From assembly GCA_964016885.1 (NCBI GenBank), contig OZ024742.1:277822001-277886000 (forward strand): 64,000 nt of DNA, in the 5' to 3' direction. How positions within the stretch are numbered: the first letter of the stretch is position 1; the number at the start of each line of letters is the position of its first letter. Source of the DNA: Eledone cirrhosa (lineage: Eukaryota). Positions 5,624-60,200 of the stretch are shown piece by piece. The notes under the pieces are model-generated. The model saw nothing but the letters and a program-made list of their open reading frames with translations. It was not told the DNA's origin and ran no database searches. Position numbers and translations under genes: made by a program.

Positions 5624-6084
5624 TATGTATGTACGTATGTATGTATGAGGTTATACAGAGTATATATATATATACATATATATATATTTGAGTGTTCATA
5701 TTATTCGTTAACTATTTCCAGCTTCAGTTGATACATGTGTGTGTGCGTATGTCTGTATGTGTGTGCGTGTGTGTACAAATAAACATACATTCCTACCCAC
5801 ACGCAGGAATATACACACATATATATAACAGACGTATATATGGGAATAAATAGATACCCAGAAAAAATGTATATTTCCGATGTCAAACTTTCACCTTGGA
5901 GATAATTTATAAATTTCCACCGCCACACCGGCAACACACATGCATACACACATATACACATACATATACACCCGCGCGCGCAAACAGAGACAAATGCAAA
6001 CATTCACAGATACACATAAACATAATAAAAACACGCTTATACACATGGGCACATACATATTCATAAACACACACACATGTGTGT

Positions 6085-7490
<1,406 letters not shown>

Positions 7491-8198
7491 TTAAAGACAC
7501 AAATATAGACACGCACAAACAGACAAACACACACGGATACACATTCGCATACACACACAGACACATGCGTATAGACATGGTCACGTACATACTCACTCAC
7601 ACACAGGCACGTACACACACACATATAGACACACTGTCAGACACATACATACTATCCCAGCCACAACCAACCCACTCTTCGTGTCACCCCCATCTTATCA
7701 TCACACCAAATTATACCATCACTTACCTAAATTACATTATCGCTCCATGTGTTAAGATATGTTCCGTTAATCACCCACTCCTCACTCGCACTCGCCTGTT
7801 CATTATTTATTAGGGTTAAAGCCCTTCTCATACCCATCATCATCATCATCAACATCCATATCATCACCATCATCATCATCATCATCATCATTCTTCTTCG
7901 CCGTCATCGTCAGAATCGCCATATAAACACGTATGCTCACACATATATATGTATATGTAAAATGATATATAAATATATATAAATTTACACACACACACAC
8001 ACGTGTGTGTGTATGTGTGTGTTCTGTATATATGTGTGTGTATGTGTATGTGCGCGTATGTATATGTGTATTTGACTCTCTCTGTGGGTACGATTTACTT
8101 TTAATGCTGTATTGTATTGTATTGTTCTTAATTCTATTGTATTGCTTGCCAACACTTCTGTTGTCACTTTTTACCATTCTAGTGAATAAAAGTATTGC

Positions 8199-10822: not shown

Positions 10823-11267
10823 TAGTCTAGCAAGACCAAAATATATACCGAGTTGTCACTACTTGTGAAGACCAAGCTCACTAGCAACTGCATTTCCTCA
10901 TTAAATTCCATTAATTTTAATTAATTTTAATTGGAGGTTTGTTTCCCTTGTATTTCTCGACCAGAATTAATCATTCAGCTGAGTTTTATTTTTCTCTACA
11001 CTATTTTAATTGTAATTGATTAACAGTTGTTTCTTCACATTAAACTAAACTAGCACGAACTTAACTATTTACGTTCAGTGATATTGTGATCAGTGATAGG
11101 CTGGTTGTAAAGGCATTGTGATGATAGGCAGGGTGGTAGTGTCGGAAGCAGTGATTGGTTAGTGATAATTGAGTGGTGCTGATTGGTTGGTAGTGATTGG
11201 GTAGTAATGTGTTTTGGTAGTAATGGGTGTAATAGTGTTAGTGGAGATAGTGGTGGTGATAGTGATT

Positions 11268-11740
11268 CTGGTGGTGATGGTGGTGATGGTGGTGATGGTG
11301 GTGATGGTGGTGATGGTGGTGATGGTGGTGATGGTGGTGATGGTGGTGATGGTGGTGATGGTGGTGATGGTGGTGATGGTGGTGATGGTGATGGTGGTGA
11401 TGGTGATTCTGGTGGTGATGGTGGTGATGGTGGTGATGGTAGTGATGGTGGTGATGGTGGTGATGGTGGTGATGGTGGTGATGGTGGTGATGGTGGTGAT
11501 GGTGATTCTGGTGGTGATGGTGGTGATGGTGGTGATGGTGGTGATGGTGGTGATGGTGATTCTGGTGGTGATGGTGGTGATGGTGGTGATGGTGATTCTG
11601 GTGGTGATGGTGGTGATGGGGATGGCGGTCATGGTGGTGTTGATGGTGGTGATGGTGATTCTGGTGGTGATGGTGGTGATGGGGTTGGCTGCCGGGATGG
11701 TGGTGATGGGGATGGCGGTCGTGATGGTAGTGATGGTGGT
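11268..11740. repeat. (GGTGGTGAT)n 9-mer minisatellite with interspersed GGTGATTCT variants
   Basis: Direct reading; open in several frames (GDG / VVM / ITT). Confidence 0.93.
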
Positions 11741-12234
11741 GTTGGGAACAGTAGCGGGTAGCGTTGTGGTGGTGGTAGTGGTAGCAATGGAAGTTGAGGT
11801 GGTGGTGATGGTAGTTTTAACTGGAGTGAAGTGATGGTGTTAATGGTGGCAGTGGTGAAGCGAAGGTGTTGGTGGTGATGAAGATAACAGACGTGGTTGA
11901 TAGTATGTTGGTGGCGGAGGTGGGAAAATGACGCGGGTGGTGATGCTGGTGAAGCAATGGTGTTGGTGTATGTGCATCAGCGTATGTGCTTATGCGTGGG
12001 GGAATTTGTGTATATATGTGTGTATATGTGTCCGTGGGCCATTTATGTATACGTGTTTATGGGTGTGTTTATATGTGTGTATGTGTGTGTGTGCAAAAAT
12101 TGTGTATGCGCATGTATGGGTATGTATATATGGATATATGGAAACAGATGTGTATTTGTGTGTATATGTGTATGTGTGTGTAAATGTGTGTATACATATA
12201 CGTATATGTATGTATACCAATATTAGAATGCATG

Positions 12235-25245: not shown

Positions 25246-28200
25246 CGGAGAATATAGACGTGATTTTGTTTCGCTCCTGCATTTTGTCGGAATTTATTAC
25301 GAGAAGCGGTAGGTCTGTTTAAGTAATTCGTTATTTGTTGTGTTTAACCGCTCGCCTGGGCCTGCAGACGTTGGGTAAAATAAATTTCGCCCCTTTCTGG
25401 GGCGAAATTTAATAGTTAGAAGTTGTCGATAAAAAAACGTTTGGTGACAATGGACGCCATTAATACGACGCATGCCACGCCCCCCAAGGAAAGTGATAGA
25501 GAGAAGGTAACAGCACAACGCTGTAAGCCTTCCCTCCTCAGTCCCGCAAAGGACACCACGGAATCAAAAGAAAAAATTGTGGAAATGGGTGAAAACCCCA
25601 AAAGTAACAATTTACACAAATAAGAACAACAATGACAATAACAATACAACCAACAACAGCAATAATGACAACACCAACAAAGGAAAAAAGCAGGCCAACA
25701 CGAATAACAACAACAACAATGATAACAACACGAAAGAAAACGGACCCACAGCTGCAGTCTCCTTCGCACAAGCGGTCCGAGAAACGCAGACATACAAGGC
25801 ACTGGACATCTTGAATGCCAAGAAATTGCTGAAAGAAGCAAGGAATTGTGTTACTTTCGGGGAAGGTGGGGAATTCACAATTACCTCCCCCGAAGAAATC
25901 AGAAGGGACACGGTCGGTCCTCAGGACTGTAATTTTTAGGACAGTTTCGAACACGACTAGGAAACCGGCTCATTTGTCCCAAAGCGAAATTGAGCTGGTC
26001 CTAAGTAGTGCCTGGAAGGATATCGCTTTCATACAGAAAGGGAAACTGTATGGAAGCATATCTGTTTTAATGCAAGATGAATTGGCGCCACGGAAATATT
26101 CTGTGTCGCCAATTGTATCCAAAGCATACACCTTTTTCCTCACATATTTGGGGAAAAGAACTCAAAAGATAAGAATCTCGGGCATCAAGCCAAATGCGAG
26201 CACTTGGGTGCTAACGGGATTCTTAGAAGATAAGGACACAATACTTTCGATAGGCGAATCCACCGGGGCCGTATTCGGCGGCAATAACCTTGAAGTTCTG
26301 GTCAAAATGAGACCAGAACGGATAGCAAGAATACCGCAGCGTGTGTCCCTGGATGGAGTCGCCTTCATAAACATTTCTGTTGAGGGCAGGCGGCCTTCAT
26401 GCTACCACTGCTCAAGAAGTGGTGACCTGAGGGCTTCCTGTCCTCTTTTAAATGCCACGCTCCCCAAAAGATGCTTCCGCCCACCCCACACAGAAAAACA
26501 CAACCACCACCACCACCATCACCACCACCACAACAACACCACAACAACAACAACACAAGACACTGTCTCACCCAACCCCTCCCCACCTAAAACAAATACA
26601 AAAGTAACCACAACAAAAACACCAATATACCCCTCCCCAACAACACCTACGAGGACCCCTTATCAACGTCAGCCAGTGACGACGAGGGAGAACCCTTTCA
26701 GCCTGTAAAAAGAAAGAAAAGAAGGCACCACATTAACAAAAATGCAACAAACACACAACCACCAGCACAAACAGAACAAACATCGCAAACAAAAATACCC
26801 ACGCCTCCCGAAAACATAACACATACTACAAAACGCAAACACAAACAAGAACAACAAACAAAAACAAACACAACACAACAAAAACAGTATACATACACCA
26901 ACACAAACAACAAAACACTTGTGCAAACAATAGACAAAGACCCTTCGGTGGAAACCGAAGGGAATATGTTAACCAACGCGGCGACTAAACCGCATTTAAA
27001 AATGGTTAGGGTCCCAAGGGACACCTACGCAATGCTCAAACAGAACTTTCCCGAGGACGTGGGGAACCCCTGTACTAGACCTACCAACCGCGTCCTCTTG
27101 AAATGTTTTTGAAATAGATTTTCTGACTGTGCTACTGTGGACGTGGACTAATCATAGCGGAACATCTAGGTTGTACCTAGATAGGTTCCTAGTTAGAAAT
27201 AAGGATAGGGACATATTAAGCTGTCCACGAATGTTCATGGTTGACTATTCGGATCACAAGTTGGTGACCGGAATGATCAACCTTGATAGAATCCATAGAC
27301 AAGGACCTGGTTACTGGAAGCTAAACTTGTCCTTACCGACAAACAAAGCTTACAGTAAGCGGATTAGCACTCTAGTTAAGCAGCGGTTGACGGGGGCAAT
27401 TGTCAACAGCAGGTGGAGGGGCTCTCTCAAGAGAGAAATTAGAATAGAATTGATAGGTTTTAATCAGGAATTAGCATAATATAGGACTAGAACTGAAAGG
27501 CAATTGATAGATAGAGTAGAAGAGGCGATTAGGATGGGAAACGTGGCCGGCGTGCTGGCGTCAAGAACGGCCCTAGACCAGTTCTTTGATGCGAAGCACG
27601 AGGGCTGTGTTGTCAGGAGTAAAATACGTGCTCTGGGTAACGAGAGAGTCAAAGCTGTTAGCTGGGCCCGAGTGACAGAGGCAAAAAGTGGAAACAAGTC
27701 CAAGATTCGGTCTTTGAAGGACCAGGATGGACACGTGATCCTTAGACCTGAGCGGATGTGCGATGCCTTTCAACGGCGCTTTGCACGACTGTTCGGGAGG
27801 AGCAGCGGGCCCGGTGAGGCCATGGATTTCGGTCCATACCTCGACGGTCTGCCGCGGCTCTCGAACGGGGAGGCTAAGTCCTGCGAAAGGCCGATTTCAG
27901 CCGCTGAAATAGGGGAAGCGCTGAGCCTATGCGGCAAACGCAAATCTCCCGGTCTCGATGGTCTACCATACCAACTTTATGTAGCGATGCCGGACTTGTT
28001 CTCCCATATCCTCGAGGCGGTCTACTGCAACTGGCAACAGAACGGAAGAATTGCCAGTTCTGTGACCAAGGGCATAGTCACGCTGGTGAGGAAGGACGAG
28101 AACAAGGGGGATGACATAGATAACTTCAGGCCCATAACACTGCTAAACACAGAGTTAAAGATTTTGGCCAAGGTGTTAGCAAAGAGGTTGGCGCTTGTCG

Positions 28201-30210
28201 TCGGGAACCTGGTGGGAAAAGCGCAGACATGCGCAATCCCGTCCAGGTCCATACACGACAACCTCCACCTCGTGCGATACATCGTAGAGAGGGTAGGGAA
28301 CGAACCCGGCTTTGGTGGGGCCCTGATCAACTTGGATCAATCTAAGGCGTTCGATAGGGTTGACCATCGGTAGCTGGATGCGGTGCTCGCAGCGGCAGGC
28401 TTTGGACCCGTTTTCAGGGGCTGGATTGCTGCAATGCACAGCAGCAACACCTGCTCGAGGGTCAAGGTGAACGGCTACCTCTCGGAGCCGTTCCAAATCG
28501 CGCGATCCATCAGACAGGGATGCCCTCTCTCCTCCCTTCCTTCTGTATGTGCTGGCTCTCAAGCCACTACTGCGGAAGTTGGAGCTGTTGCAGGGAATCC
28601 CTTTGGAACCAGGATTTCGGAAAGCGGTGTCAGACTAAGCCGATGACGTGACAGTAATGGTGTCATGCGCCTCGGAAATCGAGCAGGTCGGCACCTTACT
28701 GGAGGAATACGAAAGGTTTACAGGAGCCAAGCTGAACCGGGACAAGTCCGTCGGTTTGCAACTCGGAACGCGGAAAGGAAAACCGATTCCCTCCGACGGC
28801 GTCGTCGGACACTGGACGGAGGGACCGGTGAAGCTGCTCGGAGTCTGGTTCGGACCGGACCTCCAGGTGGAGAAGAACTGGGATGAGGTAACGGACAGAG
28901 TGTTTGCACTCACCCAGAAGTGGGCCGAGTGCAAACTATCCCTGAAAGGTCAAGCGGACGTGGCGAATACTTATATAGCGTCCGTCATCTACTACCGCTT
29001 GACCGTCGTGCCTTGCCCAGCGAAAACGCTCGCCAAAATGGAGCGCGCGCTCTTCCGATTCCTTTGGAAGTAGCGGGCCCCTCTGGTGAGGAGTTCCATC
29101 TGCTATCGAACCCTTCGAACGGAGGGCTGGGGATGCGTAGATACGCATTAAGGCTACGGCACCTCCAGGTATTCCTCACCGGTAGAGCCGGTGTGGGCCC
29201 CTTTGGTGAGGCGAGCCTTTCCGAGACTCGTCTCACTCACCGAGCTGCAATCCTGGGTCAAGCAAAGACCGAGAAAAGTGGGCGACTGGCACATTGAATG
29301 TGCCCAGGTGCTCACGGCCCTCTGGAAAGCGGATCCGGCAATCAGTGGAGACTCAACCTCAACATTCTATAGAGGGTTGGTGCGCAGCAAGTGCGACGAC
29401 GCTCTCGGAGAGGCTCTGGGCATGGAGGAAAACGAGCTAGCCAGTCTGTTCGGAAGGACGTTTGGCCCGGGACCGATGGACAACTTCCAAAATTCCCTGG
29501 CTTGGCAGTGCTACCGAGGAGCTCTACCCGTTCGGGACAAGCTCTACAGACACGGGCGCCAGGGTAGGGACCCTTCGAAGAAGATCTGTCAGAGATGCGT
29601 GTGTGACGAGGAAACAGTCGCGCACGCATTCCCACACTGCCCGGGCGTTGCTGACATGTGGGGCTGTGTGGAACGACTACTGTCGTGGGTGGGACCAATC
29701 CGGTTGACCACCGAGTACATTGTCACGATGAAACCGCCTCCCCCCTTCAAAAACGAAGGAGAGGCTGTTTTCCTCTGTGTGATAGCTATGTCGAAAGAGG
29801 TTGTATGCTGGACGACGTTGAAAGGGCTGAGGTCAGACACCTTTCTCTCCGGCCAACAACTGGTCCTTTTTTTCAAGTATCATTTTAGAAGAAGGATCAG
29901 AATGGAGGGTCAGGTGCTCTACCCCAGCAAGTTTTATGAAAGGTGGGTGAAAGTGGCGAGAATGGCCCGAGTGAATGGGTCTTCTCTCTATATCAGCCTG
30001 TAGGTGAGAGAGGAGAAGGGACACTCGCTTTTTGTGCTCCTGAGGAGGAGGGTTGCGACCCACCCCAACGCCCCCTCCCTATTGAGGACTTCGATTGTTG
30101 AATTTGATTTGTTATATATTTTTACACGTCCCTTGAAATGTATGTAAACTCCCCTCTTGTATTTTTCCCAATCTTTGATGCCCTGGTGGCAAATAAATAG
30201 AAAGTTATAA
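25246..30210 (+). mobile_element. Tx1-like LINE copy B: 5'UTR + ORF1 + ORF2 with most of the APE domain deleted, degenerate
   Basis: ORF1 pieces 25450-27110 (N-rich, SFA, CYHCSRSGDLRASC); abrupt join to late APE (WTWTN..SRLYLDRF..SDH..YWKLN); RT KSPGLDG, DQSKAFDRVDH; CQRC..HC; followed by (ATCT)n. Confidence 0.92.
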
Positions 30211-30472: not shown

Positions 30473-33400
30473 CATCATCATCATCATCGTTTAACGTCTA
30501 TCTTCCACGTTAGCATGGGTTTAGACGGGAATTGTCCCACTAGAGGCAAGATTGGCTGTTTTGCTCGTATAGGACTGTATGGCAGGTTTTCTACGGCTGG
30601 ATACCTTTCCTAACACCAACCACGTTTACAGTGTTGACTGGGAGGTTTTTACCGTGTTACCTACACGGCCATATTACGGCGTGGACGGTGTGTTTTTTTG
30701 TCGTGACACCTACACGACCTCATTCATTTAGGACTGGATGTTGTGGTACCAACATAACTTTACAGAGAAAGGGGTGGTGTAGATGGGGGTGGGGTAGGGG
30801 TAGAGGGATGGGGGTGAATTTTTGGTTACGAGGTGCCTACTGACTGTAGGTTTCGCTTTGTACTTAGACAAGGTGAGTCTTCTGTATTACTGCGTAGCGC
30901 CAAAGATCTCGGTCCAGTGACATTGTCTTGGAGAGGTGTAAGTGTGTAAGGTCGGAATTTATCAAATCGTCCCAGGTTTTTCTGGGTCTGCCTACTCCGT
31001 AGCTTCCACCAATTTTGATCGCCCTGCACTTTTTTATACAGCTGTCGTCTTTCATGCGCATCATGTGACCATACCAACGTAGTCTTCTCTCGAGTAAACA
31101 TCACCTGATCCCTCTTATTCCTAATTTCTCACTTAGTTCATTTATGCTTTGCCGTTTGCGTATATTACTATTACACATCCAATGGAGCATGGAAGCTTCG
31201 TTCCTCTCCAGTCTGTGAAGATCCTCTGCACACAATGCCCATGTATCACTGCTATGTAACATTGCTGTTCGTGTGCAGGCATCATACAGTCTGCCTTTCA
31301 TTTTTAGAGAGAAACCTTTAGCGACTAATAGTAGTATAAGCTCTCTGAACTTTTTCTATCCCGTTCTGGCTCTGGCTACTGTACTTTCAGAGCACCCTCC
31401 ACCACTGCTGATTTTGTCACCCAGGTAACGGAAGGTCTCCACTATTTCTATAGAACCATCTGGGCTATGGAAGGAGCTAGTATCCTGTGGGCACTTGCTA
31501 CTACTTATTGCACCTGAGCACCGGCCACATATAAAATCTATGTTCTTAGTTAGCTTACCTGTGATCCCACTACATATTTTATGCACCCATACTTTGCATT
31601 TGGGACATAAAATGGAATTTCTGCCTACTCCTTTCCTACACACTGAGCATGGCCATTTCCCAGTGCCCTATTTTCCTTCCTACATACTAGAACTTCAGTC
31701 TTAGACTAGCTAATTTTAAGGCCTTTTGATTCTAGGCCATGCTTCCATATTTGGAATTTCTTCTCTAGTTCAGCCATTGATTCAGCTATGAGCGTTAGAT
31801 CACCTGCATATAGAAGTTCCCATGGGCAGCCGGTCTTGAACTCCTCTGTTATAGCCTGAAGGGCAATAATAAATAGGAGGGGGCTAAGGACAGAGCCCTA
31901 ATGAACACCAACTTTTACGCTAAATTCTTCACTATATTCGTTGTTAATTCTAACCTTGCTGACTATTTCTTTATACATGACTTGTAGAGCTCTCACAAGC
32001 CATTCATCAACACCTAGTTTTCTAAGAGCCCACCAGATAATGGAGCGGGGGACTCTTTCAAAGGCTTTCTCCAAGTCAACAAAAGCTAAGTATAGGGGTT
32101 TACTTTTAGCTATGTACTTCTGTAGTTGTACAAGGAAAAGAGCGTCTGTGGTACCTTTTACCTGACACAAACCCAAACTGCATTTCATCTAGATCAATTC
32201 GCACTCTGATTAGTTGCGCTATAACTCTTTCTGTGACCTTCATGACCTGGTCAATTAATTTAATGCCTCTATAGTTTCCCCTATCTAGGGCATCTCCTTT
32301 ACCCTTGTAGCAGTTAATGATGATGTTGCTACGCCAGTGATTTGGTATGACCCCATTCTGTATGACTTGGCTTACTATCCGGGTGACCATAGTGTGTCCC
32401 ACCGATCCAGATGCTTTCAGCATTTCAGCAACTATCTTCGAAGGCCCAGCTGCTTTGCCTGACTTCATGTCTTTGATTGCCTTACTTATTATACTACCTT
32501 CAACTTGCACTGCTGGTCCCTCTATTGGATCGATTTGGGGCAGACTATCTTTTTCCGACTTATTCACCTCATTTAGTAGCCTCTCGTAGTGACACTTCCA
32601 AGCTACCTTCTTATCAGTATCAGTGATGGCAAGTATACCATCATCATTACGGACACACTTTTCCCCGACAATATCACGGTTTTCCTTGACACATTGTCTA
32701 GCAATCCTGAACACCTCACATTTTTGGTCCTCGCGTTGTAGAACATGCTTGAACTTTCTTTCCTCTGCTTACCTTCTTGCAAAGTACACTTGTATCCTAG
32801 CTTCCCTCCTGGCCACTTGATAGTGTTCTCTACTTCCCCCATCCCACCATACTTTCCAAGCTTGCTTTTTGGCCTTAATTAACTCCTCCACCTTACTGTT
32901 CCACCACCATGTTACTCTCTTCCTGCCTATAGGTCTGTTCCAGCCACAGATTTCATCTGTCGCTCGCCTTAAGCAGGTTAACTTACAGGAATTCCCACTG
33001 TTCCTCTATACTGTACGTCTCTAATTGCTCTTCCTTACTGTCAAAAGCATCAAGTAATATGCTTTTAAATTTGTTACTGGTTGTGGGGTCCTTTAACTTC
33101 CATATTATTCTTCTCAGGGTAGTCCTCCTCTGTTGTCGAGTACGTCTCGTACTGACTATGGGGTCACTAACTATAAGTCTATGTTGGGAGGTGCATTCTT
33201 CACGGGGAGGGATTTAGTGTTTACAACAGACTTTGTCTCGTCTTCTGGTAAGGATATAATCTATCTGACTGGTGTGTTCCCCTGATCTATAGGTGATCAA
33301 GTGATTGTCTCGTTTTTTGAAGTTTGTGTTACAGATAGTTAGGTTATTAGCGTCACAGAATTCCAGGATTCTGAAGCCTTCCTCATTTCTGGTACCAAAC

Positions 33401-45865: not shown

Positions 45866-48492
45866 GTTCTTTGAGTCTCAGTCATTGATGTTAGTTAACT
45901 GGAAAGTTTGTTGATATGAATATCAAGCCACTACCTGCAGCCTCAGATATTCAGGACGTATCGGAGGGTTCTTGCTGTTCCCAGCAAGCATGCCTTTTGA
46001 AGTGTTCCAAAAAGCGGGGCGAGACCAATTTTCTTTAACCATCCCTGGAAACTCTTTGAGATAGTACCTAGTGCGCCTATGACAATCGGGACCACTTTGA
46101 CCCCATGGCAGTTCCAAATCCTTTTCACCTCCCACCTTTAAGTCCTGGTATCGGTTAATTTTCTCCATCTCCTTCTCTTGCACTCTCGTGTCGAATGGGC
46201 AGGCTACATCCACAATCAGGCACGATCTTTTTCACTTGTCCAAAACTACCAGGTCAGGTCTATTGTGTTCCAGTTTCTTGTCCGTCTGTATCCTAAAATC
46301 CCACAGCACCTTCACCTGATCGTTTTCCATTGCCGACTCTGGCTTATGCTCATACCACTTTTCAAAATGTGGTAAATTGTTTACTTTTCATAGGTGCCAG
46401 TGGATCACCCTGCCCATCACATCATGTCTCCAGCCCTTATAGTGAGTCTGGCTAGGTGTTTACACTCGGATACAATGTGAGCCACAGTCTCCTCTCTCTC
46501 TCTCCACAGATCCTGCACAGTGGGCTAGCCTCCTCCTTGTAAATATGGTGTTTCAGCCACTTCGTTTTGAGGGCCTGCTCTTGCGCAGCCATTAGCATTC
46601 CTTCTGTAGCCTTTTTAAGGTCTCCTCTATTCAACCAGTTCCATGTCTGTGGATATCTAAATTCAGTTTTCTCAAAGAAGGTACTATGAAGGGATTTTTC
46701 ATGAAGGTTGCTCATTCTCCTTGATATTTCTTCCTTGGACATCTGCTGGTCTATTGTCCTCTCCTTCAGTAAAATTCTGAGCATTGGCTCCTTACTATCA
46801 GTCACGTATTTGTGTAGGTTGTTTTTCGCCATCTGAACACAGTCCTCTATGCTGATAAGACCTCTTCCACCTCCAGATCTCCTTAAGTAGAGTCTATCGA
46901 CATCACTCCTCTCGTGGAACATGTTGTAGATAGTCAATAGCTTCCTAGTCTTCCTATCCATTTCTTTTTGTTCAGCAACATTGCATCTAAGAATTCCCGC
47001 ACTGTACCTAATAATAGACACAGCTCGGGAATTTACTGCACTTATGGCATTCCTACTGTTCAGATGTGACTTTAATACGCTCCTTACTCTCCGAATGTAT
47101 TCAGATCTTATCAATTCCTTCATTTTTTTGTTCTTGATGTCATCAGCCTCCAGAACACCTAAATATTTGTATCCTTCTTCAGTATCAATTTCCTTTATCA
47201 TCTCACCTGTTGGTACCTGGATTCCGTTGCTTCTGCTCAATTTACCCCTCTTCATCACAAGGACTCCACACTTACTAATACCAAATTGCATACATATATC
47301 ATTGCTGAAAATACGGACAGTGTCAACAAGCACATCCAACTCCTTCTCACTCTTCCCAAAGAGTTTAAGATCGTCCATGAAGAGGAGGTGGTTGATGGTA
47401 AGCTCTCCCTTTCCCAACTTGTATCCTGCTCTCACTTTTCGCAGTATAATGGTCAGGGGATCAGGGCAAGGACAAACAACAGAAGGGACAAACTATTTCC
47501 CTGGAAGATACCTCTCTTGATCCTCACGCAACCCAAGAATCATCCGCCCGATGTTAACTCTGTTTTCCAGGACTTCATACTTTTGCTCAACAACTGTCTG
47601 ATGTTATCTGCCACCCTGAAGATCTCTAGGCTTTTGGTTATCCAAGAATGAGGTACCATGTCGAATGCCTTTTTGTAGTCTATCCATCCCATGGCAAGAC
47701 CAGTGTGTCTCCTCCTGCAATTCCTCATTACCATCTTATCAATAAGTAACTGGTCCTTTGTACCACGGGACTTCTTTCGGCATCCTTTCTGTTCGTCCGG
47801 TAACAAGTTGTTTATGTGGAGGTGATAGTAGATTTCCTAAGGCACAATGCTTGTTAACAGTTTCCACATTACGGACAGACATGTGATAGATCTATAGTTG
47901 GTAACATCATAACCCTTGGTTCGGTCTTTCATTACCAGAACTGTGGTACCTTTTGTCAACCACTCTGGTACCTCACCTGACATCAAGCAGTCATTGAACA
48001 TGTTTGTCAGTTTCGGGTTGAGGGATCTTATATTTTTAATCCAATACCCCTGCACACCATCTGGGCCTGGTGATTTCCAGTTGGTTAGTTTTCTGGCCTG
48101 CCCCTGAAGAGTTTCAATTGTGATACTCAAATCAGTTTGTTGGTGAGCCTGTTCACTAATCTCCTTTTGTACTGTCTCAATCCACACTGCCTGATAATTA
48201 TGTTTAACATTCTGCTCCCATATTCCTCTCCAGAATGTCTGAGTTTGTTCCGCCTCAGGGATAAAGTCGTTGCCTCTTTCTTTCCCTTCAAGCTGTCCAA
48301 ACAACATCTTCTGGTTGTTGTCAAACATGCGGTTCTGTCTATACTGACTGACTCTGTTCTCGTATCGCCTGATTTTTGCACTCTTTGCTACAATGCGTTG
48401 CTTCAGTTCCTCTATGATAATATTTAGCTTTTTCCTCCCAGTTTTGTACTTTATTTCCAGTCTATTTTTAGTGTCTATGTTTTGTAGTGTCC

Positions 48493-48532: not shown

Positions 48533-51500
48533 GAGTCTGAACGGACGTCTTTTTGCTCGCTCTCGTAAGTTTATTTATTTACCTGTCAAAACTTATTTAT
48601 TGAATTTTGTTGTTGTTGTGTAAGGCATACAAGCCCTTGGACTTTGCCCTGTGAAGGGGAAAGTATAATATTTGGGCCTTTTGGCCCAAATATTTGAACT
48701 TTTATACATTTAAAAGAATTATCGAGAAAAAAAAATAAAAAAAAACATGGCTGAGCCCCCCCCCCCCCCCCCTCCGCGATATGTCTGCTGTCGGGCGACA
48801 ACGACGTAGAAGTTGAGAGAAGCGCTACTACGGCGAAATTAACAGAAATTGATACAACAAACACCACCACAAACAACGTGAACAAAGACAGAAATGATAA
48901 CAACACTGAGAACTCTAATTTTGAATAAAATGACAGTAACAGCGACAACCAAAATACAGATAACAGAAAAAATGACAACAAATGCAACAACAATATCAAC
49001 GCCACTAACATGGAAACAAATAGCGACAACAGCAACAATACCAACTGCACCGACAACAACGGCGGCACCAAAGAAAACAATGATAACAGCAACAACACCA
49101 ACAAGAACAACAACAACAACAACACCACCAACAAGAAGAACACTTTCGCTAAGGCAGCAGCCAAAAAGGGGCCATGCTTCAACATGGACCTCTCAAATAA
49201 AGATGAAAAGTTGTCCCAGGCCTGGAAGCTCATCAAGCAAGAGCAAACCTGGGCCAACTTAACTGTCCCGGTAGAAGCTATTGAGGCAGTGGAGCGCAGA
49301 ACGGTACATTATAGATGCATCTCAGCACAAACCAAAAGGGCAGCTTTAATTCCACAAACAGATGTCAAAGTCGCGCTGAGGTGCATCAGAGATGACACCG
49401 ACTACATAGCGAGGGGCAGACAATACGGCACCATTTCGGTGTTGTTTAAGTCAGAAGCCCCTGCTATGAAACACGCTATGACACCTTGCACAACCAGCAA
49501 GGTATAAATTACCCCTCCCACATGGGAAAAAAAACGGCCCCTCTCCGCATTCCCAGAATCCCAACAGGACTTGACATGTGGTGGCTTCTGGGATGTGTGA
49601 TAGTGGAGGTGATGGATACCGTCCCGATAGAAGTGACAAGAACTGCCAGAGAGGACTGGTCCAGGGTGGACTTGGAGATACTTCTCCAGATCAGGCCGGT
49701 GAATGTGAAGACAATCCCGGACCACATCCGCCTTCAGAATGGGACGGTCATTCATATTATGACCGAGGACAAAAGGCTGCATTGTTTTGTTTGTGGGGAA
49801 AAAACCCATTTGCGAGCCTTCTGCCCTCAACGTTTGAAGGATGTAAGAGGTCGAAGGGCTCCACTGCTGCCGACGCCGGGGCGAGGACTGCAACCAACAC
49901 CAGCACCGGAGATACGAGACAGCTTTCCTCGGGACGTGGGAACCCCGAACGTAAAACCCACTTCAAGACTTTTAAAGGGTTTCCCAAAAGAAACCCCACC
50001 AACTATGGAGGTCGAACCACCCGACCTTCACAAGAGCCCGGAAGGTAAGTAAACCTTTCCTCTCTCTGTTTTAGCCTGCCAACATGGCCGTATTAAGAGT
50101 AGAAAGTTTAAATGTTCGAGGCCTGGGATCGTCCTGGAAGCAGGGTCACCTGCTCAACGACCTCAGGTCTCTAGAGATGGATGTAATTGCCGCCAGCGAG
50201 ACCAGGATTTCCGACACGCGCGTACTAGCCCCCATTTTCGACGACTATCAGATCTTTGCATCTGTTAGTCGGCCAGGAATGGGAGGTGGGGTGGCAGTGC
50301 TGTTTAGAAAAGGCCTGGATATCGAGGTAAGGTCGATCTTCCGGGACCCGGACGGGAAGTTGGTGGTCCTGGACGTGAACAATAACGAAGGTGGTGCCTT
50401 TAGACTGGTGGCCGTCTACGCCCTTACCGGGGAAGGACGGCCGGACTTCTTTAGACGCCTGGATGCCTTTCTTGGTACGTCTCGCCCTTTACTGTTAGCG
50501 TGGGACTGGAACGGCATCTTAGACGCACGCTGGGACTGTGTGGGAGTATCCGATAGGAGCGGGGGGTGCAAAAGCCTCAAGTACCTGATCAACCAGTTCC
50601 AACTGTCTGACAGGTACCGACTAGATTTCCCCAATGCACCAGTGTGGACTTAGACTAACTGCATAGGGTCATCTAGATCGTATATAGACAGGATATTCAT
50701 TAGGAAAATAGACAGAAATAGTGTAAGCTGTCCACGTTTTAAAACGGTCGTCTATTCAGATCACAAGTTTGTGATCTGTATGGTCGACCTAGATAAGACG
50801 CGTAGGTTAGGACCTGGTTACTGGAAGCTGAACATGTCATTTCCGGCACGTAAGGCTTACAGGGAGCAGGTCAACAATTTAGTTAAGAAAACGTTGACAG
50901 GGGTTGTCGTCAACAATAGATGGTGGGGGCCTCTCAAAAGAGAGATTAGAGTAATGTCGATAGAGTTTAGTAAAGAAGTAGCGTTAGAGAAAAATAGAAA
51001 GGAGGGGGAGTTGGTAGATAAGTTAGACGAGGCTATTTGTAGTGGCATTGCAACTAATGTGCTAGCGGCGAGAATGGCATTAGACCATTTCTTCAATGCG
51101 AAACACGAAGGTTGCATTGTCAGAGCTAAGGCGCGTGCTCTGAGAAACGAGGAAACCAAAGCTGTTCGATGGGCCCGCGTGGAAGAGGCGCAGCGTGGTA
51201 ATAAAACCACGATTAGGTCTTTGACGGATCGAGATGGACACGAGCTGAACGATTCCAAACGGATGTGTGAGGCCTTTCGCCAACATTTTGTTCGGTTATT
51301 CGGGGGAAGTGGCGGGTCAGAGACGGTGGCGGAATTCAGTCCCTACCTCGATGGCTTGCCGCAACTCTCGACGGCCGACGCTGGGCGCTGCGAAAGTCCG
51401 ATTACTTCAGCCGAGATTCAGGATGCCCTTGTCGGCCGCATGAGGCGCAAGTCACCTGGTTTGGATGGTCTGCCCTACGAGCTTTACGTAAATATGCCAG

Positions 51501-52020: not shown

Positions 52021-55000
52021 AGGACCGTCCAAACCAGGCGATTTACCCCTCGTGCAATTAGCCATCGCTTCCCGTATTTCACCGGCTGTTATTGGCTTTT
52101 CCCAACACTGTGCTGCGGTCGTCGAGAGCCGAGGCAGTCCGTCGAGGTATGCACTGAAGTCCATACCCGATCCGGCCCGCCGCTGCTCCCGAACAGTTCA
52201 GCAAATAGCTGCTGAAAAGCATCACACATCTGCTCGAGTTCGAGTAACACGCGCCCGTTTTGGTCAGATAAAGACCGAATTGTGGCTTTGTTGCCACGTC
52301 GCGCCTCTGCCACCCGGGCCCATTGGACGGCTTTTGTCCCCTCGTGTTTCAGAGCACGCGCTCTAGCTCTGACAACGCAGCCTCGTGTTTTCCGTTGAAG
52401 AATTGGTCGAGTGCCAATCTCGCCGCAAGCACGTCGGTTGCGATGCCTGTCCTAAACGCCTCTTCTAGCTTTCTGACTAGCTCTCCCTCTACTCTATTTC
52501 CCTCTATCACTAGTCCTTTGCTAAACCTAATCGACTCTACTTTAATTGCCCTTTTCAAGGGGAACCACCACCTATTGTTGACGACCGCTCCGTCAACGCC
52601 CGCTTAACTAATACGCTAATCCGGTCTCTGTAGGTTTTGAGCGCTGGGAAAGACGCGTTCAGCTTCCAGTAACCGGGTCCTTGTCTATGAAGTCTGTCTA
52701 TGTCGATCTCAAAGATCACAAATTTGTGGTCTGTGTAGTCGACTATTTTAAATTGTGGACAACTTATACTAGCCTTATCTAGTTCTCTGCAGAATACCCT
52801 ATCGAGATACGATCTGGATGACCCCATGCGGTTTGTCCATGTCCACATTGGCACATTCGGGTGATCCAGTCGATACCTGTCAGACAGTTCAAAACGTCTG
52901 AGCAGGTTGGTGAGGCTCTTGCACCCTCCTCCCCTATCCACTAGCCACACACATCCCAGCGTGCGTCCAAGATATCGTTCCAGTCGCCCACTAACACTAA
53001 AGAGCGGGACATTCCAAGAAAGGTCTCTAGACGTCTGAAGAAATCTGGCCGTCCTGTCCCTGTCGGGGCATAGACGGCTACTAGCCTGAAAGCGTTGCCT
53101 TCGGTGCCGCTTACGTCCAGCACCACCGACTTACCTTCTGGGTCCAGGAAGATGGTCCGTATGGCGAGACCCAAACCTTTCCGAAACAACACGGACGGCT
53201 CAGAGATGCGTACACCTCGTAACCGTCGAAGATCGGTGCGAAAGCTTGTGTTTCGGAGATTCTCGTCTCGCTGGTGGCCACCACATCCATGTTTAGTGAC
53301 CTGATGTCGTTAAACAAGTGAGCCTGCTTCCAAACCGAGCTCAAGCCACACACGTTTACACTTCCGATCCTGAATACGGCCATGTTGGGAGAGGAACGGG
53401 GCAAGTGAGAAAGGATCACTTACCTTGATCGTCTGGTGAAGGGACCGTTGAATCGTCCCTTTGGCTGGTCGTCGGCTCTTCTGTGAGTATATCCGAGTAT
53501 ACTCTCCGGTTGAGTGTCCCTCCTAGGTCTCTGAAATCACCAACTGCGTTGAGGAAATTCATTTTAATGTTTGTATATTGTTTCTGTGATATTTTTACCA
53601 GTCTTATGTTCGTTCGTGTTTTGATTGGTGCTGGTATTATGTAGTCGTGCTGTGAAATATGTTTTCAATTATTTAAGTCATTAGTTTCTTATTGTGTGTA
53701 TTTATTGCTGAGTATTTCTTTTTCTGGGGGTGATGTGGGGTTCTGCTATTTTCTTGTCGTTGTTGCTGGGTGTGTTGTTTTATTGTTGTGTTTGCGATGT
53801 TGGTGCTTGTGCTGGTGTTGTTGAAAAGTTGTCGTTGTTGGCGGTGGGGTTGCCGCCGGCGGTGATGGTAGTGCTAGTGTGGATGGTGATGGTGTTGGTG
53901 GTGTTGCTGCTGTAAGTCTCTTTGCAGTAGCCTTCACCCTTTTTTCATTTCTTCCCTCCCTTTTCGAAGGCGACGATGCGCTGCTTCTGCGTTTGTGCCT
54001 TCTTGCGACCTTTTGCCATCCCTCTCCCACCTCACACTCCATGTCCGATTCTGTGAGGTCGGGGAGGGGTACCAGCCCCACTTTTTCACTTGTTCTTGTT
54101 GGTGATGGTTGCAGTGGAGTCTCTGTTGCAGATGCAGTTGGTATTACTGTTGTTGTTGTTAATACTTCCACTGCTGCTGCTGTTCTTGATTTCCGTGGTG
54201 TGGGTATGGGTGCCACGGACCTATTCTTCCTGCTTGCCGCCTGTCCTGTTCCTGGTAGCAGTGGAGCCGGTTTCGGAAGGAGGGGGTCCTCCTTTCTCGG
54301 GGTCTTCTCATTGCAGAAGGCCCTGGGGTGAGTCTTCGACCCACAGCGATCTTTTCAGGCGTTTGCCATCAACACTTATGGGAAGTTGAGTGCCGTTATC
54401 GAAGTCTATCACATCCGAGATAGCTTCGATGCACTCCTGGTTGGTTTGAATTAACATCTCAATGGAGGCGCCGACCCAATCTTCTCGTACTTTTTTCTGT
54501 ACTTGCAGTACGGTTGTTTTGTCCTCGAATCCAACGAGGACAGACGCGGCCAGCCAAGAAGGGGCCATCCCGGGTGCTGGGAGGTGTGACTTGGGTCAGT
54601 TTGACCCTCACAATTTTTTGCCTTCAGTCGGAGGGCACCAACGCCATTTCCTCGTGCCTTAGGGTTACTAAGGATTGAGCCTTCGCCTTCTGGGGTGTAG
54701 AAAAAAGCACGTACACGGTGGCATATTTCTTGCCTCGGGTGATATGCTTTTTCCGCTGCCACACCGACCCTAAGGCTTTTTGTATTTGAGCCTCTGTGGC
54801 TCTTTCAACCCTACGTGATTTTGTGCTTACTGTACGGTACGTGACCGTACAGTGCTGTTGGGTTTCGAAAAATTCTTCGGCTGCCTTGCAGTTGCTCGTT
54901 GTCCGGTTTTCGTCACCATCTTCCTTGCTTCCTGTAATTCCTCATTTGTTATAAGGATGGTTTCCAGCTTCTTTGCGATACCTGCAAACGCGATTGGTTT

Positions 55001-55050: not shown

Positions 55051-57190
55051 GAGATTTCATGATTTTTGCCAAGGTGTTAGCAACGAGATTGGCGCGTGTC
55101 TTCAAGGGTCTGGTGGGAGAGGCGCAGACATGCGACATTCCGGACAGATCCATACACGACAACCTCCACCTCATGCGATATATGATAGAGAGGGTTGTTA
55201 AGGAACCTGGCACGGGTGGGGCCTTGATCAACTTGGATCAATCCAAACCATTCTATAGGGTCGACCATCGGTACCTGGCGGCGGTCCTCGAGGTAGCCGG
55301 TTTCGGGCCCGTTTTCAGGGGTTGGATTGCTGAGATGTACAGCGACATCTGCTCAGTTGTGAGGGTGAACGGTCACCTGTCGCAGCCGTTCAGCATCATG
55401 CGTTCGGTCCGCCAGGGTTGTCCCCTCTCGTCCCTCTTGTACGTATTGGCTCTCGAGCCGTTACAGCACAAACTGGGGGCGACGAGAGGCGTCCCACGCG
55501 AACTAGGATGCGGGAAATCCGAGTCGGCTTACGCCGACGACGTCACCGTGGTGGTATCAGACACGTCCAGAAGCTCAGAACCGCTCTCAAGGAATACGAA
55601 GCGGTGACAGGAGCAAAAATAAACCAGGAAAAGTCGGTGGGCTTGCAGCTCGGCACCTGGATAGGCAAGTCCATGCCGTCTGACAGCGTCATGGGGCGTT
55701 GGAGGGACGCAACGGTTAAATTGCTCAGGGTCTGGTTCGGACCGGACCTCCAGATGGACAAAAACTGGAGCGAAGTGACGATCAAGGTGGCCTACCTCAC
55801 CCAGAAATGGGCCGAGAGGAAGCTGTCCCTGAGAGGCCGGGCGGAGATGGCGAATGCGTAAATCGCATCCCTCATCTGCTACCGCCTCACTGTCGTCTCT
55901 TGCCCCGGCTCAACTGTCACTAAAATGGAGCATCTCTTCTTCCGCTTTTTGTGGAAGGGACGCGCTCCCATGGTCAGATAATCCCTCTGCTGTCAACACC
56001 CGTTGGGTGGAGGACTGGGCATGCCATGTCTGATGATGCGCAAACATGCGTTGGGGCTGCGACATCTCTGGTGCTACCTTGATGGTGAACAGGTCTGGTC
56101 GCCGTTCGCCAGGCACCTTTTCCCACAGCTCGTCTCCTTGACGGAGCTGCATTCCTGGGTCAGGAAAAGACCGAGAGATAGCGCTTGGAAACTGGAATTC
56201 TCCAGGCGCTCACTGCTCTCTGCCAGCTGGGCACCAGTATCGGTGGAACATCCAGCTCGGCATTCTATAGAGGACTAGTGGAGGGGAAGAGCGACGACGT
56301 TCTCGGAGAGATCCTGGGCGTCGAAGAAGATCAGCTGTTTGCTCTCTTCAGGAGAACTTTCAGCCCAGGGCCTATGGATAACTTCCAAAAATCCCTGGCC
56401 TGGTAGTGCTACCGGGGAGCTCTGCCGGTTCGAGATAAGCTCTACAGGCATGAAGTGCCGTCAGCCGAGCCTGTCCGAGATGCGCGCAGGGCGACGAAAC
56501 CGTCGTGCACGCACTCGTTCAGTGCTCGAGCATTGCTGACTTGTGGAGCTATGTCGAACAGTTGCTGTCGCGTGTAGGACTGATCCGGTTATCGACTGAG
56601 TCCATTGTGCAGATGCTCTCGCCGTTGTCCTTCGAGGAGGAAGGGCAGGAGGTTTTCATCTGCCTGGTGGCCATGGCGAAAGAGATTGTGTGGTGGACAA
56701 GATTGAAAGGGTTAAAGACAGACACTTTCCTCTTCAGCGAATCCCTAATTAACTTTTTCAAGTTTCACTTGAAGAGGAAAATCAGGGTGGAGAGGGAAGT
56801 GCTGCCTTCTAGCAAGTTTGTTGAAATGTAGGTGAATGTAGCGAGAATGGTCCAAGTGAACGGGACCGCTCTGAATATGTCTGTAGTTTGAGAAATGGAA
56901 AAGTTGAGAGAGGGCGCTTGCCCTGGTGGTCAGGGTGGCGGTGGTCTTTTGTGTGGTTTTCGCCACGAGTAACCCTCGGAGGCCCCCCCCCCCCATATTG
57001 GGGAATTTTTCATTGTTTCAATTTTCATTTTTATTGTTTATATATATATATGTTTCTATGTCTTCTTTTTCTTTCTTATATAAATAATAAAAATCTTTAC
57101 ACGCACAAAACCAACATCGTACCGTCCTGTACGGTCCTGTGCCACCTGTAATGTTTTTCTTGAAATCAGCCCTTGTGGCCAATAAAGAAA
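55051..57190 (+). mobile_element. Tx1-like segment F: RT + CCHC + 3'UTR
   Basis: IFAKVLA.RL, RQGCPLS, AYADDV; 3' end GCCCTTGTGGCCAATAAAGAAA then (ATT)n at 57193-57222. Confidence 0.92.
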
Positions 57191-57222
57191 TCATTATTAT
57201 CATTATTATTATTATTATTATT

Positions 57223-60200
57223 GGCGACCTACGTAGGAAATCGTATTATCGTGAGCTCCGCAAAGGTTTGTTATTTTCAGTTGTTTCAAATTGCCATTTA
57301 TGGAAAATTTTTGTTGTTAAGTGTTTATAAGTTCACATATATTGCTTTCGGAAAGGACACTCAAAAAGATTGGGGCCTTGAGCCCAAAATTTAAACTTTT
57401 ATAAATATCAAACAAAAAATTTCTTTGAAAAAATCATGGACGACTCACAGCCACACCAGGCTGACAGCCTTCCTCACAAACTAACACCTCACGCGAACAC
57501 CACCATTGTAAATATTACTACGTTTGCCAACACTAAAAATATAAGCAGTAGCAATAATTTAAATTTGTCTCATGCAGACATTCATTTCCCGCCATTACCA
57601 AAAACTGCAGGTGTTAAAGCCGCTCCCCCCACCACCACAGCGACAACAGAAACAAAAGAAAAAAATAAATTATTATCTCGTGACATCGAAATGGATTCAC
57701 CCAGAATCGACTCTTCCACACCGAACACCACTGACGCCACCACCACCACAACTGAAACTAAAAATAACAATAACAAAAATAACAATAACAACAACAGCAA
57801 TAACAACAATGAGAATAACAACAAAAACACCAACACCACCGCAAATGTGTCGTTTGCCAAAGCAGCCAAGAAATGTGAAACAATCGAGGTAACTCAGGAG
57901 GAATTAAATGAAGCCAAGAGAATGGTAAAGATAGATGGGTACAGGGTCAGCCTCACCCCCCACCTATGCACCGTGTCTTATCGGACGATTAACACAAAAT
58001 CGCACCCAGTGGAACGGGTATCCGAGTCCCAAATCCCAAAAGCTTTGGGACATGTGTGGGCGAAAAAAACCTACATCAGACGTGGGCAGAAATATGGAAC
58101 CGTGGACGTGTTCTTTGGAACACCACAAGAGGCCAGAGAGCACCCCATGTCTCCATTAAGAAGCGACGACTTCACACTCGTCCCAAGCTATTGTGGCCAG
58201 AGACTCATGAAGATCAGGGTGACCCACGTTCCACTGGCCATCGAAATTCTCTGGCTAATGGCGGCCGTCCTCGCCGGCATCGAGGCCAACACCAAAATAA
58301 TTGAAAAATCAAAAGAAAAGCAGGAGAACTGGTCCGGATCTGGGATGGAGCTCCTGATCCAAGCGGACCAAAAAAGCATTGAGGAAATCCCAGAGGTAAT
58401 AGACCTCACTGACGGCAGCCACCTCACAGTAATCGTCGAGGGCAGAAGTCCTAGGTGTGTCGTTTGTGATGAAGGAACCCACCTAAAGGCTTTCTGCCCT
58501 CAGGCTAAAAGGTTGAGGCCACCTCTCTTACCCACCCCAGTGACTCAACCATCAACACCACCAGCAGCAGAAATGGCAGCAACAACTGTAGCAGCAACAA
58601 CAGAAGCAACTGTAGCAGCAACAACCCCAGCAACAGTAGGAAAATCAACACCACCACCACCCACCGCGCCAGAACTAGCACCAGCACCTCCACCATCCAC
58701 CACACCACAAACCAAAGCCTGTGGAGGATTTTCCACTCCCCGACCTATCGCAACTGGAGACAGATCGTGACGACGAGGAGTGGGAAACTGTATCAGGGAA
58801 AAAGAAAAAAAGAAAAAGAAGACAAAAAAGAAAAACATTCTCTTCCTTCCCCCTCCAAAAACAAAATACAGAGGGAAACAAATAAACTATCAAACAACAA
58901 AGTTTGGACAGCTATGCCACCATCCCCACCAGCATCACCAACCCCATCACCACAAACACCAACACCATCACCATCATTAACCCCAACACTACCATCACCA
59001 ATACCACAAAAGTCACCAAAAAGCGAAACAGAAACAAACCCACAACAAACGCAAACAAAACAAAACAACCAAAACGATACACACTACACGGCATTAAATT
59101 TGAACAACAAGCAATTATTACATTACATCCAACACAACACCAGCATCACAGAAAAAGACTACACAACACCCAAAAGTTCACACCACCTCCACACATACAA
59201 ATCACTCGCATCACAAAGAAAACGTACACGACACTAAAACAAAAATTCCCCAAAGACATCGGAGACTTCCGACAAGCATTCTCCAGGCGGATTTATAAGG
59301 ACATCATTCCGGAGGAGGCCACAAGCAGTGAAAAGGATGGAGAAACCATCTTTCGTCTACGAGAAGTAAGGTAAGTGGTCTTTCCCATCTTTTCCACTCC
59401 TTTTCAACATGACCTCACTCAGAATAGACAGCATAAATGCGCATGGCTTGGGGTCGTCATGGAAGCAGGGCCACCTGCTCAACGACATCAGGTCACTAAA
59501 CATAGATGTAGTGGCCATCAGCGAGACCAGAATCTCTGAAGCACGGGCCTTCGTACCGATCTTCGGCGGCTACGTTGTGTACGCATCTCCCAGCCGTCCT
59601 GGATCGGGGGAGGAGTTGCTGTGCTTTTTCGGAGAAGTTTGGATCTCGCCATACGGGCCATCTTCCTGGACCCAGAAGGTAAGTTGGTGGTGCTGGACGT
59701 GACCAGCGGAGACGGGCAAGCTTTCAGGCTAGTGGCCATCTATGCCCCGACAGGAGCAGGGCGGCCTGATTTCTTCCGGCGTCTAGAGACCTTTTTTGGA
59801 ACGTCCCTCTCTTTAGTGTTAGTGGGTGACTGGAACGGGATCTAAGATGCACGCTAGGACTGTGTGGAATTAGCGGATAGAGGAGGAGGGTGCAAGAGCC
59901 TCACCAACCTGCTCAGGCGTTTTGAACTGTCTGACAGGTACTGATTGGATTTCCCGAATGTGCCAATGTGGACTTGGACAAACAGTATCGGGTCATCCAG
60001 ATCATATCTAGATAGAGTATTTTGTAGGGAAATAGATAGGTCTAGCATAGGCTGTCCACAATTCAAGATAGTCAGCTACACGGACCACTAATTCGTGATC
60101 TGTGTGGTTGACTTAGATAGGCTTCATAGACAAGGACCCGGCTACTGGAAGTTAAACGCGTCCTTACCAGCGCGCAAGACCTACAGAGACCGGATTAGCG

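Follow-up and report, generated by a model that had tools for sequence, protein, structure and literature searches.

A conserved 5' splice-site motif at the ORF1 end of Tx1-type LINEs in Eledone cirrhosa: a predicted stem that would hide it and hybrid lineages joined at it

Several copies of two-ORF LINEs, lettered here together with the families they belong to, lie in a 64,000-nucleotide stretch of the 3.0-Gb genome of Eledone cirrhosa (contig OZ024742.1, positions 277,822,001 to 277,886,000; hereafter the window, numbered from its first letter). Their ORF2 carries an AP-type endonuclease (PF03372) and a reverse transcriptase (RT; PF00078), both recognized in copy D, and a zinc domain (PF13966) recognized in copy C, and its best relatives among solved structures are L1 ORF2p. 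In D, G and B, three of the window copies, a separate ORF1 bears a CCHC knuckle (CX2CX4HX4C). Microsatellites are the preferred targets, as (ATT)n or (TATC)n lies 5' of 34 of the 54 copies examined and is also seen at 3' ends. This is an L1/Tx1-type organization; the Tx1 label itself rests on architecture and on the naming in the initial annotation. Protein relatives stand at 37-39%, no relative was found among the viral contigs searched, and a metagenome scan returned two loci, one a 28%-identity fragment with no AG/GTRRGT in the available 227 nt upstream of its ATG (the slash here and below marks the exon end), the other a weak match. Among known elements, Kibi and Koshi are Tx1-clade non-LTR retrotransposons that target microsatellites (PMC4494074), and L1-Tx1 elements have been described in Octopus vulgaris (PMC13282606). 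As far as the accessible parts of these accounts go, they share with the present elements two ORFs, a CCHC motif in ORF1, the endonuclease, RT and zinc domains of ORF2 and microsatellite insertion, whereas the present elements insert into (ATT)n and (TATC)n. The same parts describe no donor, stem or splice-born family, and 'splic' occurs 0 times in the main text of the octopus account as available. Elsewhere in the window, long CAT/CAC-type simple repeats (11000-11900 and 5900-7800) give rise to spurious long ORFs, and RT-like fragments of other, more distant elements occupy 32214-32549 and 46452-47492, both on the minus strand.

The feature of concern lies at the boundary between the two ORFs, where the initial annotation had noted a donor-like motif in copies D, E and G. 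All three positions are confirmed: AAGGTAAGT stands at 50042 on the plus strand in copy D (GT at 50045, ORF2 ATG at 50084), at 53426 on the minus strand in copy E (GT 53423, ATG 53383) and at 59368 on the plus strand in copy G (GT 59371, ATG 59409). The GT-to-ATG distances are 39, 40 and 38 nt, so that the spacing of 38-40 nt claimed earlier is accurate for these window copies and too narrow for the nine families sampled, in which it ranges over 28-47 nt. AAG/GTAAGT is the consensus U1-binding 5' splice site. In copies D (50042..50050, +) and E (53418..53426, -) the motif is read in phase 1 as G/GT AAG TRA, and ORF1 ends E-G-K-stop in D, with its TAA at 50050-50052, and Q-G-K-stop in E; in copy G (59368..59376, +) it is read in phase 2 as AG/G TAA, and ORF1 ends V-R-stop with TAA at 59372-59374. 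The corresponding region is missing from copy C, where a deletion of about 750 nt near 27108, not located at splice sites, has removed the end of ORF1, the spacer and the start of ORF2.

Beyond the window, AG/GTRRGT was found at the ORF1 end in nine of nine sampled subfamilies, which between them read it in two frames and use three stop codons. It is intact in 26 of 30 D copies, 27 of 30 E copies and 29 of 30 G copies (window copies counted). Families C, B and A were fetched without the motif in the query, and I, J and H by means of exon-end patterns. Family C carries CAG/GTAGGT in 20 of 29 copies (the junction is retained in 27), family B AAG/GTAAGT in 15 of 16 junction-bearing loci (20 fetched) and family A GAG/GTGAGT in 9 of 12 (20 fetched; one junction is C-type). 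The young family K is the exception, reading ACG/GTAAGT in 27 of 30 copies, with its own donor weakened at -2. All changes in the motif between families remain inside the U1 consensus, and the nine-family AG/GTRRGT forms duplexes of -10.8 to -13.7 kcal with the complement of the 11-nt consensus; in its match to U1, the motif has the form of a U2-type 5' splice site.

Comparison between families indicates that the letters themselves are held. Six of the eight motif positions are invariant; for fourfold-degenerate sites the figure is 21 of 84 and for third positions 97 of 430, among elements whose ORF2 diverges by up to ~31% in the well-sampled families and by up to 55% at fourfold sites. Two donor look-alikes produced by codons within ORF2 are absent from three and six of the nine families, respectively. 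A second perfect AAG/GTAAGT within ORF2, made by DPEGK codons, occurs at window positions 53137 (-) and 59676 (+) and is confined to B, E and G. A rough count from the motif invariance rates, allowing for protein and stop constraints, yields ~0.006. The selected signal proposed in the initial annotation is accordingly upheld as a nucleotide-level 5' splice site. Of the outcomes that it had named as fatal, an explanation by the terminal codons of ORF1 fails, because two reading frames run through the motif and the stop can be TAA, TAG or TGA; nor is the motif missing from most subfamilies, all nine of those sampled carrying it. The nine families share one ancestor, and the conservation therefore represents one origin. 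As to why the donor is kept, a selected function as a U1 gate may be proposed by analogy, tentatively and at slightly less than even weight.

Three hybrid lineages bear on whether the donor has been used. In each, the ORF1 of the 5' family ends exactly at the donor and the sequence of the 3' family begins just after a CAG. Aligned to copy E, 12 contigs in each of two DNA runs (one sample) break at 53424, the last exon base, and then continue as G-type sequence. These are family K, for which base 53424 (-) is the exact point of departure from E-type sequence. Upstream of the join K is 91% to E with almost no G matches, and its ORF2 is 96% to G and 82% to E. The G-type part starts after a CAG within ORF1 (59326..59328, + in copy G), 42 nt before G's donor; the homologue of this acceptor in copy E is the CAG at 53465..53467 (-), 41 nt before its donor. 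One added G restores the reading frame of family G in all 48 K-type segments counted. Matches to the K junction pattern number up to 2,485 (all K among the first 100 listed), and K thereby outnumbers its 5' parent (454, B and E together). In family H (18 matches), an I-like exon end is joined to a 23-nt piece; the check for an AG at this junction in the parent was set out before the parent, H0 (877 matches), was examined, and the CAG proved to be present in 97 of its first 100 listed. The third lineage (3 copies) joins an A-like exon end, belonging to a different ORF1, to H after CCCGCCAG; its 5' parent is outside the sampled families. Because of the hybrid join, ORF1 of H (L161-L188) reads through the donor and overlaps the start of ORF2 by 13 nt. 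The idea that H proves the donor to be maintained independently of the stop was considered and abandoned, since H is a hybrid and its parent H0 stops at the donor.

Four control anchors at non-donor AGs gave 1, 2, 2 and 4 matches, all point or indel mutants, so that hybrids came from two of four donor anchor sets (A/C/I/J and B/E) versus none of four controls, a small sample; the D and G/K donor anchors yielded no hybrid lineage in the pattern screen. At the level of DNA, all three lineages fit GT-AG joins. Replacement of the 5'UTR and ORF1 in LINEs is usually attributed to template switching, and several observations are compatible with such a route. The acceptor in G has no pyrimidine tract, the AG at every hybrid junction doubles as a 2-nt microhomology, and K could alternatively have arisen by a switch at a 5-nt microhomology combined with a 5-nt slip, slips of this kind being seen at L396, L406 and L407. 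In-register recombination also occurs among these families; L276, with an E-type junction and a B-type 3' end, is a likely case. In H and the third lineage, the partners share only the AG at the junction. That three lineages are joined exactly at the donor is likely due to the splicing together of neighbouring copies, and on this genomic evidence the donor has likely been used by the spliceosome.

Head-to-tail tandems would supply the RNA for such joins. Sixteen of 54 copies begin immediately after the tail of another element, and K forms 6.05-kb head-to-tail arrays. In one of these (L408-L409, G000:C1:55,423,000-55,443,000), three K elements are separated by (ATT)n only, and the 6.05-kb spacing recurs at many of the listed K places. 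The window itself holds an E-type 3' fragment, F, whose AATAAA and (ATT)n tail (57181..57223, +) is followed directly on the same strand by element G, starting at 57223. An E-type-to-G tandem of this order would be the substrate for family K. Two further observations concern the surroundings of these families. Junctions of family I cluster at 150-220 Mb and 290 Mb of G000:C1 among the first 100 listed, and at L411-L419 (minus strand) an antisense donor-like GAG/GTAAGT is seen in K ORF2, some 800-870 nt from the far end of the loci.

The C/T-rich spacer between the donor and the ORF2 ATG has a predicted partner at the other end of ORF2. In our model, it is the 5' arm of a stem of 37-54 bp with the ORF2 stop and 3'UTR, which would cover both donor and AUG and loop out ORF2 over a range of ~3.4 kb. 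In the window, the spacer with the ATG spans 50051..50086 in copy D (+, including CAAC), 53381..53417 in copy E (-) and 59377..59411 in copy G (+). For D and G, the 5' arm is predicted from other copies of the same family; copy D has no 3' end of its own in the window, and its partner arm is the ORF2 stop and 3'UTR of other D copies. Candidate 3' arms within the window are the ORF2 stop (~56884-56886) and purine tract of fragment F (56881..56945, +, counted by eye) and, in copy C, the ORF2 stop (30001-30003) with the start of the arm (29998..30030, +). The stem was evaluated from 94 long stretches, 71 with both ends; two copies with a 1-nt donor deletion were dropped, and one recombinant as well from the analyses of pair covariation and of acceptors at the ORF2 end. 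With the spacer alone, the best pairing window was the ORF2 stop in 14 of 26 copies, and with the donor and 10 exon bases added, in 14 of 17 (~350 windows each). The register is common to the families: the AUG region faces CTG-stop, the pyrimidines are set against the purine tract, and the ORF1 end and donor meet the 3'UTR bases that follow. Between 37 and 54 pairs form in 10 of 10 subfamily strand pairs, and whole 3.9-kb folds contain the stem in both copies folded. Cognate family arms pair better than crossed ones (25 of 362,880 permutations); cognate pairing ranks first of 120 in each of three five-group subsets, and ten control windows ranked 2-117 of 120 over 20 tests, one test ranking 2. 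The pairing predicted is thus family-specific beyond composition, and we regard a conserved long-range stem as very likely real.

The predicted consequences of the stem are more consistent for the start codon than for the donor. The cost of opening the AUG rises with the stem or 3'UTR in nine of nine families; that of opening the donor rises in eight of nine, by no more than 0.5 kcal in A, B and H, and falls in I. In B and E, the donor is already hidden by a predicted local hairpin, formed in copy E by the same spacer. Pair covariation over 469 cells gave 10 two-sided changes that kept pairing and 9 that broke it, and 35 kept to 60 broken for one-sided changes, counts that are hampered by the sliding of stem registers in low-complexity tracts. 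The paired neighbours of the donor vary across families while the donor itself is constant. A local hairpin is also predicted in the 3'UTR just past the purine tract in all families (e.g., L297, L295), and in most of them its loop could pair with the ORF1 end or the donor; it might compete with the long stem as another fold or provide a toehold for it.

Splicing within a single element was sought through its retrocopies, using donor anchor sets for A/C/I/J, B/E, D and G/K, with intact junctions screened alongside: 716 for A/C/I/J, 489 exact-anchor copies for D and 454 for B/E. Each donor-less pattern requires an exact anchor and sees ~56% of arbitrary junctions. For A/C/I/J, patterns for short introns, for an AG at the ORF2 stop and for arbitrary joins returned zero spliced copies; for D, they returned 2 and 4 matches, only small deletions; for B/E, a join to the ORF2 stop appeared in 0 of 39 matches; and for G/K, none of 13 and 9 matches fell at an AG. 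Seven matches after the E anchor belong to an unrelated repeat, L250 and L369 were set aside as spliced junctions for want of an AG, and L367 has an AG and is equally a simple deletion in K. The families share no universal acceptor, and an intron within one element finds neither a conserved acceptor nor spliced copies among the screened junctions. The earlier judgement that simple splicing to ORF2 is unlikely to be general agrees with this absence of fused retrocopies. The AG that would give D a 30-nt micro-intron is indeed present in the window copy; it occurs in only 4 of 30 D copies, a change at the level of single copies, and was discarded as a general feature. The further suggestion that U1 protects ORF2 from premature polyadenylation finds little support because ORF2 holds 0-0.9 AATAAA per copy; poly(A) signals lie mostly upstream, in ORF1.

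These observations can be arranged into a mechanism that we favour with moderate confidence, in which the 5' splice site at the ORF1 end would be held largely silent by the predicted stem and would have been spliced, in tandem read-through RNA, to the CAG of the next element, producing hybrids. U1 would bind the donor while the 3' arm is still unmade and would be competed off once the full RNA folds into the stem. The finished RNA, its donor masked, would be polyadenylated and exported unspliced, and ribosomes finishing ORF1 would open the stem and so permit translation of ORF2. In head-to-tail read-through RNA, the donor would be spliced to the CAG in the ORF1 of the next element; such joins between copies would arise rarely, as a side product, and would transfer the 5'UTR-ORF1 module to a different ORF2. 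We model the gate, its U1 binding and the coupling by analogy on foamy virus, MLV, EVD, the retention of RNAs with unused donors and SART1/L1. In foamy virus and MLV, folding of the RNA at the major splice donor sets U1 access and controls splicing or polyadenylation (PMC3694450, PMC2794156); these are, in the available portions of the sources, local leader structures, unlike the predicted 3.4-kb-range stem closing a whole ORF. The plant Ty1/Copia element EVD has a conserved U1-type donor after its Gag ORF, with a proven short intron and a subgenomic RNA, and U1 at this donor also blocks premature termination of the unspliced RNA (PMC5580714). The position of a conserved U1-type donor after a structural-protein ORF is the likeness to our elements; EVD is, from what the source offers in part, an LTR element with a spliced RNA, whereas here there is no universal acceptor and splicing is proposed from genomic junctions. 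Unused donors are described as leading to nuclear retention (PMC4380460, in part). The SART1/L1 bicistronic RNA employs termination-reinitiation, its ORF1 stop lying close to the AUG of ORF2 and RNA structure playing a part, in an account (PMC5972666) whose accessible portion mentions no donor and no 3'UTR pairing. Going further, one may tentatively regard the stem-hidden donor together with tail targeting as a built-in exon-shuffling device whose promoter/ORF1 swaps found new autonomous families, a reading toward which we are a little more sceptical than inclined.

Other explanations of the conserved donor deserve to be weighed against the gate. The initial annotation had raised a spliced ORF1-only mRNA, and such a reading still stands, if an unlikely one: the donor would be kept so that the whole of ORF2 can be removed by splicing to an AG located at its stop or within the 3'UTR, providing excess ORF1 protein, much as the same strategy supplies Gag in Ty1/Copia. 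By a simple score, a YAG at stop-4/stop+3 ranks 2-11 of ~250-270 AGs in eight of nine families, in which the join would rebuild the ORF1 stop within 1-3 codons, and G, which has no such YAG, has a 3'UTR CAG ranked 2 of 267. That AG, however, was chosen after the fact from one or two candidates, it sits inside the predicted stem with the exon paired to the intron, and the pairing already explains the letters after the stop. An RNA devoid of ORF2 would retrotranspose poorly, which could hide the product; the product would nevertheless keep the 3' tail, with its junction close to the 3' end, and no retrocopy is seen beside the 716, 489 and 454 intact junctions, nor in G. Far less probable still, in our view, is an in-frame fusion of ORF1 to ORF2 through a short intron, or the formation of an ORF2 circle when the inverted arms promote back-splicing. 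Families A and I do have a branch-like TTTAAC and a TTCAG that would give an in-frame 31-39-nt intron, and G has an in-frame CAG at ORF2 codon 5, but sister families C, J and H carry CAC where A and I have CAG, in E the two ORFs would be joined out of frame, and a fused RNA, which would retrotranspose in cis, left no copy in the screens. For back-splicing, A, C, D, H and I offer a GT behind the ORF2 stop, which is absent from B, E and G.

It is also conceivable, and improbable in our estimation, that only the stem and the stop are selected, for translational coupling of ORF2 to ORF1, with the donor's appearance accidental and the hybrids mere template switches. The stem pairs part of the motif, the phase 2 stop occupies +2 to +4, and a frameshift alone shifts the stop without a change of letters; masking of the AUG is the most consistent predicted effect, and coupling through RNA structure has been described for SART1 (PMC5972666, in the part available). 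K has moreover lost -2, and recombination is common. Weighing on the other side are the constancy of the donor amid paired neighbours that differ between families, the rough count, which remains small after adjustment for constraint, and the hybrids H and the third lineage, which have just the AG in common with their partners at a kind of junction that the controls never yielded.

The splice-born lineages, if such they are, have partial precedents. Human L1 SpIREs arise by splicing inside a single element and are for the most part dead ends (PMC5860796), and mRNA/L1 chimeras are formed by cis- or trans-splicing with host exons (bioRxiv 10.1101/2025.02.02.635956). As far as the available text of both reports extends, they resemble the present case in that spliced RNA is written back, with a donor on one side and a LINE acceptor on the other; they differ in that the present joins link LINE to LINE and start at a donor conserved within the elements themselves, and that one product, K, is more numerous than its 5' parent. 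The hybrids are not SpIREs, mostly inactive retrocopies of a splice within one element, because their joins link two families and K has amplified strongly. Our search of the literature, in which subscription journals and Repbase reports were thinly covered, found no LINE-to-LINE splice founding an abundant family and no start-to-stop stem around ORF2. Spliced retrocopies and donor-to-L1 chimeras are already known. If splicing between copies is true, it would be a route for LINEs to swap their ORF1. With three GT-AG-like junction lineages in hand, one of them abundant, spliceosome-driven module swapping is therefore testable in any genome with tandem LINEs, and a predicted stem that places the start and stop codons of ORF2 across from each other may offer a handle on unspliced export and ORF2 translation.
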